Shown here piece by piece: positions 4,938-64,000 of a stretch of DNA of 64,000 bases. Source of the stretch: Cladosporium halotolerans. Its lineage: Eukaryota. A program made the translations under genes and the position numbers. The stretch is from positions 124,001-188,000 of the forward strand of contig NW_027191456.1 of assembly GCF_011745625.1 (NCBI RefSeq), read 5' to 3'. Under the pieces are notes generated by a model, which saw nothing but the letters and a program-made list of their open reading frames with translations, was not told where the DNA came from and searched no databases. Within the stretch, counting starts at the first letter, position 1; the number at the start of each line of letters is the position of its first letter.

Positions 4938-5018
4938 CGACGTTGGCAGGACTCGAACCTACGCCCCCGAAGGGAACTGATTTCTAGTCAATCGCATTAA
5001 CCACTTTGCTACAACGCC
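4938..5018 (-). tRNA. tRNA-Ser(AGA)
   Basis: Reverse complement GGCGTTG TAGCAAAGTGGTTAATGC G ATTGA-CT-AGA-AA-TCAGT, long variable arm CCC-TTCG-GGG, GTAGG-TTCGAGT-CCTGC, CAACGTC G. A T-run terminator follows at ~4926-4931. Confidence 0.93.
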
Positions 5019-8142: not shown

Positions 8143-11100
8143 TCATGATGGCGGCACCATCGTCCAGGTCGCAGCATCGCAGGAGACTTCCTCGAAGTTG
8201 TGCAGCGAGGTGAAGCCCATCGCGCTCAACCCGTCGGGGTTGCCATCGCCGTCCATCTGCGAAGTCGATTAGCAAAAGCTCAGGAATACATTGTCGCGAC
8301 GTGGAAAGGACTTACATAATCCAAGATACAGGCGTTGCATCCCTGCTTCTTGATCTGTCTCATCCCCAAAAGGATCAAGCCCTGCAACAGCGTGGAATAC
8401 TCTCCCACCGACGGGCTGATCACGGGCGACGAGATGCCACCGGTCAACTCACCAACGGCCTTCATCGCAGGCACAAATTCTGCCAGCTGCGATTGCATGT
8501 TGTACAAGACGACCGTTCCGACAATAGCGCCGTCCTCGGGCCTCTTAGCGCGAATAATGCCGCAAGCCGAAGGATCCATCAGGGCCAGCTTGTAGACCTC
8601 GGCAAGACCCTGGCGATTGTTCGTTTTGATGTGGTCGAGCACGCCCACTGCATAATCCCAACCGTACACGAGATCAAAGTCGACAGCGGCACTCTGCAGG
8701 CTCCTAGCCATGCCTTCCGGGGGAGTCCACGTCGAGAGATTTCGAGCAATCATGCTGCAGACGGTGCGTGAGAGGGCGGTGTTCCAGCCAAGCTTGGCGA
8801 ACCATGAGCGCAGCCTCTTACGCTCGCCGCCATGGCCTGTAGGACTGCCCAGGTAGATGCTGGGTAGTCGAGAACCGAGCTGGAATCGCTTGATGCCTTC
8901 GCGTTGGAGCAGGGTACGGATAGCGCGGTTGTGCAGAGAATGCCCGATGGAGAGCTTGCGACGTGCCGGATCGACGAAAATGGCGCCAATGACTCCAGTG
9001 CCAGTTGCCTGGAAGAAGTACGTTGCGCAAAAGCCGTATAGCGTTTGAGTGCTACTGTTGCGGACGACAAAATGTTGCTCGAGAACGTCTTGATTGCGGA
9101 GAAGCAATGAATTTGAGCTTGCGCCTGACAGCTCTGAGTGCATTCCAGGAGTGGCGCCTTCGACGACAGACCTGATCAGGGCATCTAAGCCTGTCGAGTC
9201 TCGCTCTTCGTTGAAGTTTTCGACCAGCCAGTGCTGTCGTGATTGCGACAACTTCTGGCTCTGGCTGATTGTACCCGGTAGGGCACCAGCGGCGGTGAAT
9301 TCTCCATACAGTACTTTCACGAGCGCAACCAGAGCGGTTTCGGTGAAGTCGTACGTGCACATGTAGGTACCGATGGACTGGTCCATAGCAAAGTCGTAAG
9401 GCGAGCTCACCGCGATGACAATGAGCGGCTTCTCACGTTTCTCGCCGCCGGATGTATACTGCATGTTGCAGATCATCGAGACGTGCTTTGTAAAGCCATT
9501 CTGGTATAAGTTGCGGTTGGCATCTGCTGTGACGATGATGACTGCCCCAGCACGATTGATCAGATTCTCATGCTGAGGCCGCACACCGTTCGCTGTGTAG
9601 GAGGTATGCAGAACGCGTCCGTTCCTTTGTCTAGCGAGTGAGCGTCCAAGCTCCCGAAATACTCGCTCTCCACTCATCACCGAGGAACTGCGTTCCCAGA
9701 CAGCAGGCTCGGGCGAGCCGTTGGTAGCTTGATCTGATAATTGCCGGGCAGCTGCGGATGCTGCTAGGGGCTTCACGAGAGGCGTGAGGAGCAAGAGCTC
9801 GTCTTCAGGCTCGAGAATGTTCGTAAGAGGTAGCACACGGTTCTTGTCGCGTACTATTGTAACGGAAGAATTGTAGGCCTTAGTTGACAGCATGGTGTGA
9901 GAGGGTTGCAGCTTCGACAGCAATTCGATACCTGGAGGATTGAGCGCTTTCTCCCAAGACGTGCATTTCGCCTTCATAGCAAGAATGCGTTTCAGAGATG
10001 TTCGGACTCGCTCTTTGGTGATGTTGAAGTTATCAAGACCCAATTTGAACCCCTCAATAGCCTCTTGCTGGTGGATGTAGGACCGGCAGAGCAAAACAAT
10101 GTCACAGCCTGCGTTGACAGCCATGACTGTGCCGCCTCCGACTCCGATGTTGTGGCTCAATGCCTCCATCTCCAAACAGTCAGATATGACGACGCCTTCG
10201 AAGTGAAGCTCATTCCGAAGCAAGTCGTTGACAACCTGCTCCGAAAGACATGCGTGCATGACGTTCAAGCCCGCTGAAGACATCGCACATCCGCCGACCA
10301 TCATCGCGTCGAGGCCTTCTCTGATGGCATTGCGAAATGGTACGAGAGCGTTCAGACTCAATTGCTCTAGACTTTCGGTGATAGTGGGGACATCGAGTGC
10401 GGATCCAAGGAACTCGAGGCTGCCGTAGCTAGGGAAGTGCTTGCCCATAGTCGCCAATCCTGCCTTCTTGTAGCCGTTCATAAAAGCTACGCCGAACGCG
10501 GACACTTCCTGCGGGTCATCGCCATGAGTCCGGACACCAAGAGGTTGATTGCGCGCGTTGGTCAGGACGTCGAGACAGGGACCCAGTATTAGATTGATCC
10601 CGCATGCTGCAACTTCCTCAGCGGTTGCTTTTGCGACTTCATACGCCAGATCCCTTGATCCAGTCGCGGCTAGACCCATCGCCGACGGATACTGGCGAAT
10701 GTAGATATCGTCAAACAAGCTGTTGACTCCGCCATTCTCCTGGTCAATACCAATGAGCAGGGGAACTGGATGGCCGGCATCATGTGCTATCTTCTGAAGT
10801 TCGTAGATGAGTGATGTTGTCTGTTCGGCAGCTAAATGTTGTAAGCCTTGGGGAGAAACAGCACACCTCCTATGCCATACTCACACTTGAGATTCGATGC
10901 CTTCAACAGAATCGAACCTATATGATGCTCGCTGATGAGCTTCCGGATCTGCGGCGTGACGACGGTGCCCTCAAAGCCCATCTAACGAACGAATAAGCGA
11001 CGCAATCAAACAGTCGTGCATGGTTTACTTGCCATAAACAGCTGGCCGAGGGTCCTGATGTAACAGTCAGCATCGAAAGCACCCGCTCCGAGCTAGGGGA

Positions 11101-11979: not shown

Positions 11980-13263
11980 ATGCCTATCGCCGTTTCTCCC
12001 GAGCGGCCTCGCACTGGCGTCATCAAGTTCACTGGCGGCTTAATAGTCAAAGGCGACGCTCTCGTCGAAGAAGATCTCTGGATCAGCTCCGTCACAGGCA
12101 AGATCCTCCATAGCCAGGAGGTATTCTACGACTACCATGTCATTCCAGATGAAGTCATCGACCTGCGCGGCAAGGTCCTCTCTCCCGGCTTCATCGATGT
12201 CCAGCTCAACGGCGCCTTTGGTTTCGATTTCTCCACCGTCCCTGAGGACATGACCACTTACCACAAAGGACTGAAACAACTCAACAAACAGCTCATCCAA
12301 ACGGGCGTCACATCCTACCTGCCGACATTACCCAGCCAACAAGCAGATGTCTACCACCAAACCCTCCCATACCTCGGCCCATCAGGCTCCTCACGCAACG
12401 CAGCAGACGGCTCCGAGTCCCTTGGCGCCCACTGCGAAGGCCCCTTCATCACCGAATCCAAATGCGGCATCCACAGCCCCTCCGTCCTCCTCACCGCACC
12501 CAACGGCTTCGCCGACTTCGAAACCTGCTACGGCGCCTCCAACCTCACCCCAACCACCCCGCACCAAAAATCCCCCATAGCCCTCATAACCGCCGCGCCC
12601 GAACTCCCGGGCATAGCCTCCGCCATCCCCGAGATAACCTCGCGCGGCATCCGCTTCGCCCTCGGACACACGGAGGCCACCTACGAAACCGCCACAGCCG
12701 CCCTGCAGTCCGGCGCGACGATGCTCACGCACCTCTTCAACGCCATGCGCCCCCTGCACCACCGCAACCCAGGCCCCTTCGGCACGCTGGGCAAAGCCGC
12801 GGGCGCGGACCGCCCGTACTTCGGCATCATCGCCGACGGCATCCACTTGCACCCGACGACGGTCAAGATCGCGTGGAACGCGCACCCGGCGGGCTTCATC
12901 CTCGTCACGGACGCGATGAAGACGCTCGGCTTGCCGGATGGGATGTACGACTGGACGAACGGGGATCGCTGGGAGAAGGTGGGCGCGAGGTTGACGAGGG
13001 AGGGGACGGATACGTTGGCGGGGAGCTGTGCGACGCTGGGGGAGTGCGTGGAGAACTTCTGGGAGTGGAGCGGGGCGAGTGTGCCGGAGGTGTTGCGCGC
13101 GGTGACGGCGACGCCGGCGGAGATGCTGGGGTTGGGTGGCGTGAAGGGGACGTTGGTCAAGGGCGCGGATGCGGACTTGGTGGTGCTGGACGCGAGGGAG
13201 GAGGGTGGCAGGAAAAAGGTGCGGGTGGAGCAGGTTTGGAAGTTCGGGTCGAGGGTGTCTTGA
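11980..13263 (+). CDS. dac1: N-acetylglucosamine-6-phosphate deacetylase (NagA/Dac1)
   Basis: Motifs PGFIDVQLNG, GVTSYLPT, GAHCEGPF, GHTEATY, THLFNAM, IADGIHLHP, LVTDAM, LAGS. ATG at 11980; the ORF-track start upstream is a TTG. Confidence 0.95.
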   Translation: MPIAVSPERPRTGVIKFTGGLIVKGDALVEEDLWISSVTGKILHSQEVFYDYHVIPDEVIDLRGKVLSPGFIDVQLNGAFGFDFSTVPEDMTTYHKGLKQLNKQLIQTGVTSYLPTLPSQQADVYHQTLPYLGPSGSSRNAADGSESLGAHCEGPFITESKCGIHSPSVLLTAPNGFADFETCYGASNLTPTTPHQKSPIALITAAPELPGIASAIPEITSRGIRFALGHTEATYETATAALQSGATMLTHLFNAMRPLHHRNPGPFGTLGKAAGADRPYFGIIADGIHLHPTTVKIAWNAHPAGFILVTDAMKTLGLPDGMYDWTNGDRWEKVGARLTREGTDTLAGSCATLGECVENFWEWSGASVPEVLRAVTATPAEMLGLGGVKGTLVKGADADLVVLDAREEGGRKKVRVEQVWKFGSRVS

Positions 13264-13334
13264 TGGGGAATGGCGGGAGTTGCTTCACATACGTCACGTG
13301 AGTTCGGCGCTAGCGGGAGGGTGCAAAAAGAATT

Positions 13335-13533
13335 TGACGCCGCGAGGGTTCGAACCCGCTGGCAAAAGAACCACTCTTCCTCATTCGGAAGGTGTGAAGA
13401 AACCACGGGGGATTTGCTTTCGTGGGGCGGCCAGTACATTCATCGCTCAACACCGGCGTGATAGTAATCCACCCGTGGTGGTAAGCCACCAGGTCTCTCA
13501 GCGTTTCCACTCCGCCACAAGACCACAAGCGCC
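13335..13533 (-). ncRNA. tRNA-like Pol III element with ~120-130-nt structured insert (unclassified; tRNA pseudogene or novel ncRNA)
   Basis: A-box TGGCGGAGTGG (13507-13517) with GCG/CGC D-stem, B-box GGTTCGAACCC (13346-13356), complementary ends GGCGCT.../...GGCGTCA, and a T5 terminator at 13325-13329. Confidence 0.6.
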
Positions 13534-13962
13534 TCCTCCTGTACTGAGTTACTTCATAGGCAACTTTTTAAATATATATATCTTAGAAGCGCTTTCGTAG
13601 TGGCCAGGCTGCAGTCACGTGAGACAAGGTCAACGGGTTCGAGCCGCTCCAGGTCCGCACTAAAATCGCGCGTGCATTGTTAGTTGCGAGGGTCTGAAAT
13701 CACTTGGTGGATTAGGATGTGGTGGTAGGGCAGCTACTTGCAAAGTTGTAATTCACTTACAAAATCTAAATATCAAATGTCCACCCAGGAGGTTCGCGCC
13801 TCGTCGCCGCATTCTTGCAATAATTCGAAAGCCATTGTCAGCACCATTGTCCCAGGGTATCTCAGTCCATCCATATTACGCCGTATTCGCCTCCATGCAA
13901 GCGCATAGCAACATCCTTTCCCCCAATCCGCCGACTCGCATCGTCAGAGCAAGCAAGCACCC

Positions 13963-14609
13963 CTAAGCCGCCGCATTGTACTTCTCGCCCGCGCTCTTGA
14001 ACAGCTCGTCCTGCATGCGCGCCAGTTCCTCGGCCGACATGCCGCTCTGCTCCATCTTGCTCTGCTTCTTCTCGCGCGAGACCTGGCTGGTCTTGAACTG
14101 GTCGGCGACGGCCATGAGCTCCGGCACGTACTCGCCGAAGTCGAGGTCCTGCAGGGCCTTGGTGATGTGCTCGCAAGCGATCGTCTTTTTGGCGTCCTTC
14201 TCTGCGATGTCGTTGGCCTCCGTCGAGATCATCGTGATGAACTCGACGCAGCACTCGATCAGCAGGTCGCGCGTCTCTTTGGCGAAGGACATGGGCTGCG
14301 CGGACTCGTCGGCGGCTTTCGAGGCGAGGACTTCGTTGATGATCTTTTGAACGGTCGCTGTTGGGACGGTTGTTAGTTTTGGGGGTTTGCCGTAGTTGCC
14401 GTAGTCTTCTGGGAAATCCATGGCTTGTAGGGATGAGGTGTTGTGTTTGGGTTGTTGTGTGTCGAGGTTTGTGTGGATTTCACGAGCGTACCTTTGGGAA
14501 GAGAGAGCTCATCGTTGCCTTAAGTGATTGAGTCAGCGATTCATTCATCGCATTCACTGTCTTGTGATCGCGTAGCGGGCTGTCACTAACCAATATCTTT
14601 GTCGGACAT
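13963..14609 (-). CDS. NCB2: Negative cofactor 2 beta subunit (NC2beta/Dr1), histone fold
   Basis: Spliced MSDKDIGNDELSLPKATVQKII...FAKETRDLLIECCVEFITMISTEANDIAEKDAKKTIACEHI; two introns, with a 27-nt exon at 14492-14518. Confidence 0.92.
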
Positions 14610-61968: not shown

Positions 61969-64000
61969 TCAAGCTCCACCACCGATGAGACTCTGCGAGT
62001 CCTCATCAGGGTAATAGAAAGCGCCCACAGCGATAATGACATACGCCGCGATGAGCAGACTGCCCTCGAGGTAATTACTCCTGCCATCAAGCACCAGGAA
62101 GTTAACGACGAAAGCCGTCGCGAACAAACTGATAGTCTCGAAAAGGTTGAAGTACAGACTCATATCCGTGCCCAGGATCCAGCCGAGCAAGACGACGACT
62201 GGCGTGACGAACAGCGCGATCTGGATGCTGGAGCCGACGGCGACGCCGATGGCCAGGTCCATCTTGTTCTTGGCGGCGACAGTGACGGCCGTGACGTGCT
62301 CGGCGGCGTTGCCGACGATGGGCAGGATGATGAGACCGATGAAGGCCTGGCTGACGGGCGAGTCGTCGATCATCTCGGGGATGGCGTCGACGAGGAACTC
62401 GGCGCAGACGGCGACGAGGGCGGTGGAAAGGAGGAGCATGACGACAGCGGCGGTGCGGGACATCTCGAGCTTGCCGGTTTCAGGGTCGACGTCGCCTTCT
62501 TCGTTCTCGGACTTGACGCGCTGGTGCTGGAATGGCGGCAGAGGGTCGGTTCTGACTTGAGTAGGCACAGCGGAAGTTCCAGCCGGCGTTTGCTGGCGGT
62601 TGAGACGGTCGGGCAGAGAGTTCGTGCGACGGATCGTGGGACGGCCACGGAAGGTGGGCACAGGAGTCTGCGAAGACGAGGCTGGTGGCTGTGGCGTAGC
62701 AAAGACATTGTTCGAGAGCATCTTGGTCAAGCCAGGACGGAATGCCGGTGCACGTGTTGAGAAGCCACGCATATTAAACGGGCGCCTCGCAGCAGATGAA
62801 TCTGCAACCGGCTGGCTTTCAGCGTCGTCAATGTTCTCAGCAAAACCAACTCGAGGGCCGCTGTGGCTTCTCACAGATTCGACTTGCTGCATTGGAGGTT
62901 TCTCGCTAGCGCTAGCGACGTCTTCACCTGAACGATAACGACGCTTCTTTTGGTGCTTCTTGTGATGTCTCTTGGACTTCTTACGCTCCAAAGACTTGGT
63001 AACGTCTCCTCCATTGGCATCACCGAAATCGCGGACACGGGTTGTGTTGTTGTTACCAGCCTCGATGTCCGCGTCCAGATTGTCATCGTCGTGTCTGACG
63101 GGGCTGAGCACTGACTGGCGACGGGAAGGTTCATGACTGGCAATGGCATGCTCCCAGGAGCTGCCTTGACGCTCCATAGTGGTAGCCGCAGAGCTCAAGA
63201 CCGACGCAGATGGCGAAGTGGTGCTGTTGGTGCTGGCGCTAGACTTGCGGTGACGGCGATGCTTGATCATACGCTTGATACGCCTCTTCGCGGTCCGCAC
63301 AGAACCAGAAGCATCAGAGCTGTCAGAATCCGAGCTTGAGCTGCTGCTTGAAGATTCGGATGACGAGGATGAGTCCAGCATATCAGCCAGAACACCGGGG
63401 TGAGATTCTTCATCGATGATTTCCTGAGGCGTGCTTTCGTACAGGTAGGCGTGAGACTTGAGCTGGAAAAGCAGATAGAGACCGTAGACCAGGAGAAGCA
63501 CCACACTGGTGCCACGACTGACAGCCAAAACTGCGGTCTGAGCCTCAGCTCCCTTTTCTTCCTTGAAAGAGGCGTGGAAGGCAGTCTGTGCAGAACAGTT
63601 AGTAAACGAACAGCTTAATGAGTAGGTAAGGTAGAGATGACCACTCACCGGAAGCAAGAGAGACATGACACTCAGACTGAGCAAGCAAGCACTCATCTGA
63701 GTGACAGTGCTGTTGTAGATCTGCTCTCTGTACCTGAGGCCACCAAGAAGGAAAGCCATGCCAAGGATGAGAAGCAAGTTGGCCAAGATGGAGCCAAGCA
63801 AAGAAGCTTGTACGATGCGGATCTCGTTCTTGACCAGAGCGATGATGAAGATGATCAATTCCACAGCGTTTCCGAATGTGACATTGAGCAGCGCGCCGAG
63901 ACTGTCGCCGAGACGGCTAGCCACGCTCTCAGTAGCGTGACTGAGCAGACCTGCCAGCGGAACGATGGCAACTGCGTTCAATGCGAAGATGATCGTGGGA
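61969..64000 (-). CDS. Ca2+/H+ antiporter (CaCA, Vcx1-like) with a long cytosolic loop; 5' end beyond the window
   Basis: alpha-1 repeat NVTFGNAVELII and alpha-2 repeat PIVGNAAEH, IGVAVGSSIQIAL, DGRSNYLEG; intron ~63586-63648. Confidence 0.9.
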   Translation of the reverse strand, partial: PTIIFALNAVAIVPLAGLLSHATESVASRLGDSLGALLNVTFGNAVELIIFIIALVKNEIRIVQASLLGSILANLLLILGMAFLLGGLRYREQIYNSTVTQMSACLLSLSVMSLLLPVSGHLYLTYSLSCSFTNCSAQTAFHASFKEEKGAEAQTAVLAVSRGTSVVLLLVYGLYLLFQLKSHAYLYESTPQEIIDEESHPGVLADMLDSSSSSESSSSSSSSDSDSSDASGSVRTAKRRIKRMIKHRRHRKSSASTNSTTSPSASVLSSAATTMERQGSSWEHAIASHEPSRRQSVLSPVRHDDDNLDADIEAGNNNTTRVRDFGDANGGDVTKSLERKKSKRHHKKHQKKRRYRSGEDVASASEKPPMQQVESVRSHSGPRVGFAENIDDAESQPVADSSAARRPFNMRGFSTRAPAFRPGLTKMLSNNVFATPQPPASSSQTPVPTFRGRPTIRRTNSLPDRLNRQQTPAGTSAVPTQVRTDPLPPFQHQRVKSENEEGDVDPETGKLEMSRTAAVVMLLLSTALVAVCAEFLVDAIPEMIDDSPVSQAFIGLIILPIVGNAAEHVTAVTVAAKNKMDLAIGVAVGSSIQIALFVTPVVVLLGWILGTDMSLYFNLFETISLFATAFVVNFLVLDGRSNYLEGSLLIAAYVIIAVGAFYYPDEDSQSLIGGGA

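Follow-up and report, generated by a model that had tools for sequence, protein, structure and literature searches.

Introduction

Degenerate tRNA-like Pol III loci are represented in Saccharomyces by ZOD1, RNA170 and the ETC sites, whose A- and/or B-boxes still recruit TFIIIC or Pol III. These loci produce a small transcript or none at all, and they possibly serve as boundaries. TFIIIC tolerates long spacing between the A- and B-boxes, and termination by Pol III is subject to requirements on the length of the T-run. Vault RNAs are panhandle Pol III RNAs that likewise carry internal A- and B-boxes.

The element described here is located in the window, that is, in the whole 64,000-nt (64-kb) stretch of DNA that was analyzed. 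It has the kept boxes in common with ZOD1, RNA170 and the ETC sites, but it is unrelated to them in sequence, its product is apparently longer and its occupancy is a predicted one. With the vault RNAs it shares paired ends, an A-box near the 5′ end and a B-box near the 3′ end ahead of the T-run; the likeness is one of layout only, and Rfam gives no match. tRNA-related SINEs, such as AfuSINE2, have been described in a filamentous fungus (PMC5063351). As far as the available text of that report goes, these SINEs resemble the element in having a tRNA-related head with Pol III boxes and in being expressed, while the element is present in a single copy in the window, its boxes are located at either end of the whole unit and do not form a compact head, and it has its own T5 terminator, no tail and no clean target-site duplication. 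In the accessible portions of the literature on Pol III non-coding RNAs of filamentous fungi, on tRNA-like loci of Pezizomycotina (including PMC10275265) and on fungal SINEs, no such locus is described, and a literature search with two 22-mers of the element, as DNA or RNA, returned neither of them.

Genomic Context and Promoter Elements

The element is located between the 3′ ends of two convergent genes, one GlcNAc-6-P deacetylase-like and the other NCB2-like (Table 1). An 812-amino-acid ORF near the deacetylase-like gene (8280–10718, minus strand) fuses a glycoside hydrolase family 3 domain with a GNAT acetyltransferase domain, and its position beside that gene is consistent with a GlcNAc catabolism cluster. 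Two long ORFs (12681–13439 on the minus strand and 13169–13600 on the plus strand) overlap the element and the antisense strand of the deacetylase gene. No Pfam family was found in the ORFs overlapping the element, and the 92 near-length and 2 shorter candidates in the protein collection included no relatives of the antisense 143-amino-acid plus-strand ORF. Both overlapping ORFs are probably not genes.

Table 1. Coordinates of the element, its predicted parts and neighboring features (positions refer to the window)
Feature	Position	Strand	Description and basis
tRNA-gene-derived Pol III-type unit (predicted)	13325..13533	-	Paired ends to T5 run; as delimited in the preliminary description, sequence read
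A-box TGGCGGAGTGG	13507..13517	-	Exact match to TRGCNNAGTGG
B-box GGTTCGAACCC	13346..13356	-	Exact match to GGTTCGANNCC
T5 run	13325..13329	-	Candidate Pol III terminator, 17 nt past the B-box; sequence read
Next downstream T5 run	13213..13217	-	Possible read-through stop (putative role); sequence read
Terminal stem, 3′ strand GCGUC	13336..13340	-	Pairs with GGCGC 13533–13529; pair probability 0.99; 4 Watson-Crick pairs and 1 G-U
H1	13492..13524	-	GGUCUU/GAGACC outer stem, GGCG/CGCU inner stem, 9-nt loop with A-box; probability 0.94
H2	13476..13491	-	UGGUGG-CUUA-CCACCA; probability 0.53
H3	13403..13478	-	Long interrupted hairpin, CCACGGG(U)GGAUU / AAUCCCCCGUGG, apical GCCGGUG/UACUGGC; probabilities 0.51–0.59
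H4	13376..13391	-	CUUCC-GAAUGA-GGAAG; probability 0.89
Block covered by RNA-library contigs	13238..13569	.	Five well-matching contigs, 4/4 runs
Segment 5′ of the paired ends	13534..13569	-	36 nt, also contig-covered (X16 to 13569, X15 to 13559); possible 5′ leader or real 5′ extension
AT-rich TATATATATTTAAAAA	13565..13580	.	Palindrome; sequence read
Deacetylase-like gene (GlcNAc-6-P)	stop codon ends 13263	+	Amidohydrolase-family ORF
NCB2-like gene	13963-14421	-	Histone-fold
tRNA-Ser(AGA) gene	4938-5018	-	56.8 bits, T6 terminator; ARAGORN and Rfam

Read on the minus strand from 13533 to 13325, the element comprises GGCGC, two copies of CTTGTGG (13529–13523 and 13521–13515), the A-box, about 150 nt, the B-box, GCGTC-A, ATTC and the T5 run. 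The two boxes, the T5 run and the pairable ends named in the preliminary description were thus all recovered on the minus strand by sequence inspection and pattern scans, as was the local duplication of CTTGTGG. The arrangement of A-box, B-box and downstream T-run on one strand corresponds to the type 2 Pol III layout. Since the B-box is palindromic, it can also be read on the plus strand (13347–13357).

The boxes were scored against the consensus sequences TRGCNNAGTGG (A-box) and GGTTCGANNCC (B-box) on both strands of the 64-kb window. The A-box pattern has three matches, with 0.85 expected: the element, the tRNA-Ser gene and position 63211. The latter was rejected as a chance match, with no B-box nearby. 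The B-box pattern also has three matches, with 0.65 expected, one in the tRNA-Ser gene and two in the element, one on each strand. Both consensus boxes co-occur at only two loci of the window, the element and the true tRNA-Ser gene. Given this rarity, the arrangement is not a product of chance and has a tRNA gene as its ancestor.

The tRNA-Ser(AGA) gene of the window resembles the element in its A-box, B-box, paired ends (GGCG…/…CGUC) and trailer ATTCTTTTT followed by a T-run. The element differs from it in lacking an anticodon arm, in having its boxes 150 nt apart, in the mismatches of its T-stem and acceptor stem and in remaining unrecognized by ARAGORN and Rfam. The T-arm, 3′ acceptor strand and trailer of the element (…CGTC-A-ATTCTTTTT) can be aligned to the tRNA-Ser gene together with its trailer, at a score reached by only 1 of 500 shuffles; for the 5′ part the similarity is not significant, its score being reached by 212 of 500. 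Unlike the element, the tRNA-Ser gene has no AT-rich or TATA-like sequence upstream. The one found here, TATATATATTTAAAAA, could be a TATA-like element, the poly(A) signal of a neighboring gene or the plus-strand T5 run at 13565–13569. The earlier proposal of tRNA-type Pol III signals without a normal tRNA is borne out by the exact boxes and T5 run and by the null results of ARAGORN and Rfam at this position.

With moderate confidence, the element can be regarded as a tRNA-gene-derived Pol III unit with a tRNA-Ser-like 3′ end, in which about 130 nt have taken the place of the anticodon region and whose transcript is an unspliced RNA other than a tRNA. This reading is supported by the exact A-box, exact B-box and T5 run on one strand, the boxes being found together otherwise only at the tRNA-Ser gene, and further by the tRNA-Ser-like 3′ end, the terminal stem, the G-U pairs that exist on the minus strand only and the RNA-library contigs confined to one block. 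Which polymerase makes the RNA, from which strand, where exactly it ends and what it might do are inferences. The element would be a tRNA-gene relic, most similar to tRNA-Ser in its 3′ part, that has kept the internal Pol III promoter and the terminator and lost the tRNA body. About 130 nt would now occupy the place of the anticodon and variable arms, and the 7-nt duplication would disrupt the 5′ acceptor strand. TFIIIC would occupy the intact B-box together with the A-box lying 150 bp farther upstream. TFIIIB and Pol III would begin transcription on the 5′ side of the A-box, and termination at the T5 run would be incomplete. The predicted product is an unspliced minus-strand RNA of about 210–240 nt, to which the paired ends and a few local hairpins would lend some stability. 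The RNA may be incidental to the occupancy of the site by TFIIIC and Pol III between the convergent genes.

If this minus-strand Pol III reading is true, the locus provides a clear case, in a filamentous fungus, of a unit that has lost decoding and kept its transcription signals. Such loci are the origin of new small RNAs, SINE heads and TFIIIC-bound chromatin boundaries. A Pol III complex bound at this position could separate the transcription of the deacetylase-like gene from that of the NCB2-like gene.

Representation in RNA Libraries

Parts of the region 13100–13800 occur in 20 entries from public runs, six of which are RNA libraries with small shares. Contigs of four RNA libraries, from four studies, were compared with positions 12500–14500 (2,001 bases), and matching contigs were found in all four. 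Five contigs (13238–13388, 13409–13559, 13332–13569, 13278–13428 and 13291–13441) match at about 97–99% identity and together cover a single block. The deepest is the 238-nt contig 13332–13569 of run X16, with a depth of 17.6. The sole other piece within 12500–14500 is a poor 36-nt match from run X18 (12928–12963). Apart from this piece, the four libraries contain no contigs on the deacetylase coding region (12500–13237), and they contain none on the spacer 13570–13962 or on the NCB2-like gene. The runs were picked for containing words of 13100–13800, so that coverage in that span is by selection; had contigs been placed uniformly over these 701 bases, the probability of finding all five within one 332-nt block would be 0.0024. 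Contamination by DNA would not yield such coverage, given the bare flanks. No joints were reported in the contigs, which indicates that the insert is present unspliced. The contigs carry no strand and have only rough ends.

A product of about 200 nt, delimited by positions 13533 and 13325, was expected in the preliminary description. This was not confirmed, since the contigs extend to 13569 and 13238, and the covered block exceeds the predicted unit by 36 nt upstream and by about 90 nt downstream. The X16 contig breaks off at 13332, 3 nt short of the T5 run, and nothing beyond was found in this library; among the single observations, this abrupt stop is the one that hints most strongly at Pol III termination. 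Three contigs (13238–13388, 13278–13428 and 13291–13441) overrun the T5 run by 34–87 nt, and read-through to the T-run at 13217–13213 could be the source of this overshoot. On the other side, a start of tRNA-type Pol III transcription is expected nearer to the A-box than 42–52 nt, the distance at which the contig ends at 13559 and 13569 are located, 26–36 nt upstream of the paired 5′ end. The end at 13569 coincides with the last T of the plus-strand T5 run.

It is possible, though not probable, that the element is an inert tRNA-gene fragment crossed by Pol II transcripts. These could be the 3′ UTR of the deacetylase-like gene on the plus strand, with its end near 13569, or a minus-strand transcript that is antisense or downstream. 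The strandless contigs count against the Pol III reading here, since the block could be that 3′ UTR. The block begins at 13238, where the deacetylase ORF still has 26 nt to run, and is sharply delimited on one side, at 13569 beside the AT-rich TATATA element, a pattern like that of 3′-biased mRNA coverage. Also counted against the Pol III reading, and in part directly in favor of Pol II transcription, are the three contigs that cross the T5 run, the two that reach 13559 and 13569, the latter at the end of a plus-strand T5 run, and the unexceptional fold, which is within the range of shuffled sequences; the 5′ part unlike tRNA-Ser and a difference in variable sites with p = 0.077 add to this side. 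Several observations, however, are difficult to reconcile with a UTR. The deacetylase coding region 12500–13237 is free of contigs in all four runs, except for the poor X18 piece. In X16 the depth drops from 17.6 to nothing at 13332, which would be an odd start for a 3′ UTR, and the contig of this run passes through the genomic TTTTT to 13569, with no loose poly(A) end reported. The sole piece of the locus represented in plant and other metatranscriptomes would, moreover, not be expected to come from an inducible catabolic gene. Were the block just a UTR running across a dead tRNA fragment, the locus would be an ordinary one.

Predicted Secondary Structure and RNA Families

The 209-nt minus strand has a minimum free energy of −74.9 kcal/mol, corresponding to a z-score of −1.32, and 21 of 200 shuffled sequences fold as well. 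The z-score is −1.28 for the plus strand, and −1.00 and −0.95 for the 238-nt versions. The fold is thus no better than that of shuffles on either strand, and the argument that this much pairing is unexpected in a decaying pseudogene, made in the preliminary description, is left without support. Every helix that it listed does exist (Table 1), but the proposed nesting holds only in part. Helices H2 and H3 both use the 3 nt at 13478–13476 and therefore cannot both be of full length. The closing helix CGCUG/CAGCG excludes H1, and because of this competition its pair probability is 0.00. The helices contain at least five G-U pairs, which exist on the minus strand only and would weakly favor this strand as the folded one.

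The near-identical RNA contigs reveal a few variable sites. Position 13484, in the loop of H2, varies in X16, and position 13463, in an internal loop of H3, varies in X15 and X16. There are two variable sites in the 204-nt body and four in the 92-nt 3′ flank, a difference that is not significant (p = 0.077).

Four Rfam scans, comprising 4227 families and extending down to E = 10, gave no credible match to any of these families at E ≤ 10, even with 266 nt searched, and no known family at the element by gathering score. Only chance-level matches were obtained: a glycine riboswitch on the plus strand (15.8 bits against a threshold of 110 bits) and the nematode snoRNA ceN63 (14.2 bits against 65). 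Inspection by eye for SRP helix 8, the P4 helix of RNase P/MRP, C/D and H/ACA boxes and Sm sites revealed none that fits. These null results agree with the earlier statement that the element has no signature of SRP RNA, RNase P/MRP RNA or U6.

A more far-reaching version of the tRNA-derived unit can be envisaged, in which a tRNA-Ser-type gene was exapted as a lineage-specific Pol III non-coding RNA. A domain of about 130 nt, with three or four hairpins, would have replaced the anticodon and variable arms, whereas the tRNA-like ends would be kept because Pol III transcription and end-processing depend on them. The unspliced RNA, about 210–240 nt long, would accumulate to a level detectable in metatranscriptomes that lack the neighboring mRNAs, and it would represent a new fungal small RNA family with its own function, as an RNP scaffold or regulator. 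We consider this version unlikely.

It is unlikely, too, that the element encodes a very divergent SRP RNA, RNase P/MRP RNA or U6, or an undescribed lineage-specific structured RNA with its own function. About 240 nt with paired ends are present in the RNA libraries, and they are detected there without the neighboring genes, as such an RNA would be; both variants of the body are located in loops of the proposed helices, although two loop variants carry no statistical weight. This explanation is opposed by the absence of an Rfam family at E ≤ 10, by the lack of SRP helix 8 and RNase P/MRP P4 on inspection and by a folding energy that is not in excess.

Search for Relatives and Dispersed Repeats

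A metagenome scan for an A-box and a B-box separated by 135–165 nt (A-box, N{135,165}, B-box) yielded 65 loci. None of them is similar to the element (BLASTN, E ≤ 1e-3), and at E ≤ 10 the motifs alone match, over up to 16 nt. The loci shown in the ARAGORN output are mostly tandem tRNA genes (Val-Asp, Leu-Leu and similar pairs). The 22-mers of the element have no matches in the prokaryote-genome collection and none in the viral contig collection. Shares of 0.39–0.47 were found in runs of six other organisms (X8–X13) and in one air metagenome (X14), and were not counted as conservation.

In the 64-kb window there is no second copy of the element, and this is one of several features that make it quite unlikely to be a copy of a tRNA-derived SINE or other dispersed repeat, with contigs derived from several genomic copies and contig ends marking the repeat boundaries. 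A head with A- and B-boxes and the few sites at which the RNA contigs differ from the window are what such a repeat would show, and SINEs of this kind are known in a filamentous fungus, at least from the available text of PMC5063351. The 10-mer GTCACGTGAG, which occurs as a direct repeat on either side of the element (13293–13302 and 13614–13623, 321 nt apart), could be added to these points. This repeat, however, includes a palindromic E-box (CACGTG) and does not enclose either the unit or the block seen in RNA libraries; it could be a transcription-factor site or a chance occurrence. The boxes are, in addition, 150 nt apart and not spaced as in a tRNA, the element ends in its own T5 run with no A-rich or simple-repeat tail, and three contigs run into unique flanking sequence at 97–99% identity. 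When the flanking repeats were checked, a target-site duplication with a 3′ tail was not found at the ends of the element.

Comparison with tRNA Gene Models

ARAGORN run without introns finds only the tRNA-Ser gene and no tRNA at the element. With introns of up to 3000 nt allowed, it finds nothing there at the default, 95% or 90% thresholds; at 80% it makes three mutually overlapping calls on both strands, one of them with an intron at 30/31. The Rfam tRNA model (RF00005), which recognizes the tRNA-Ser gene with the score listed in Table 1, did not match the element when gathering scores were applied, nor did it reach E ≤ 10 when stretches of 701, 266 and 531 nt were searched.

By eye, no cloverleaf with an anticodon arm could be constructed. 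The T-stem has two mismatches and the acceptor stem is also mismatched, any anticodon loop would have C at position 33, and the best 5′ acceptor strand is kept from the D-arm by the duplication, with 9–10 extra nt between them. The lack of a normal anticodon arm and the mismatched T-stem, both noted before, were thereby verified. An mRNA-type GU…AG intron was also considered and rejected: a pyrimidine tract and CAG precede the B-box, but there is no acceptable 5′ splice site, and excision of such an intron leaves no cloverleaf by eye.

It is highly improbable that the element is a functional tRNA gene interrupted by an exceptionally long intron (about 100–130 nt), an option raised in the preliminary description: the D-arm-like GCG-GAGUGGAAA-CGC, the B-box T-loop, the pairable ends and a potential anticodon stem formed by GAGAG (13499–13495) and CUUUU (13369–13365), as judged by eye, would be compatible with it, whereas the missing cloverleaf, the ARAGORN results at all four thresholds, a tRNA-model score short of E = 10, the mismatched T- and acceptor stems, C33, the 9–10 extra nt before the D-arm and the absence of any joint in the contigs of four RNA libraries, which may miss rare spliced forms and, being standard libraries, capture mature tRNAs poorly, all disfavor it.

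Additional Sequence Features

Several minor features were observed around the tRNA-gene-derived unit. The sequence GTAACTCAGTACAGG, located at 13538–13552 on the minus strand just 5′ of the paired end, has by eye a loose likeness to a tRNA D-arm/A-box. If it served as a promoter element, the start would fall near 13569, where the RNA contigs end.

On the plus strand, the B-box-like CAACGGGTTCGAGCC (13631–13645) forms a 15-nt inverted repeat (87%) with CAGCGGGTTCGAACC of the element (13361–13347), and an A-box-like sequence, TTTCGTAGTGG, precedes it by about 40 nt. The motif at 13631–13645 is covered by no RNA-library contig and matched no Rfam family. Judged by these motifs, the pair may be a second relic of a tRNA gene, more decayed and divergently oriented.

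Another inverted repeat, of 11 nt (91%), comprises GUUUCUUCACA in the body of the element (13393–13403) and UGUGAAGCAAC downstream of the T5 run (13279–13289). The two sequences could pair in read-through transcripts.
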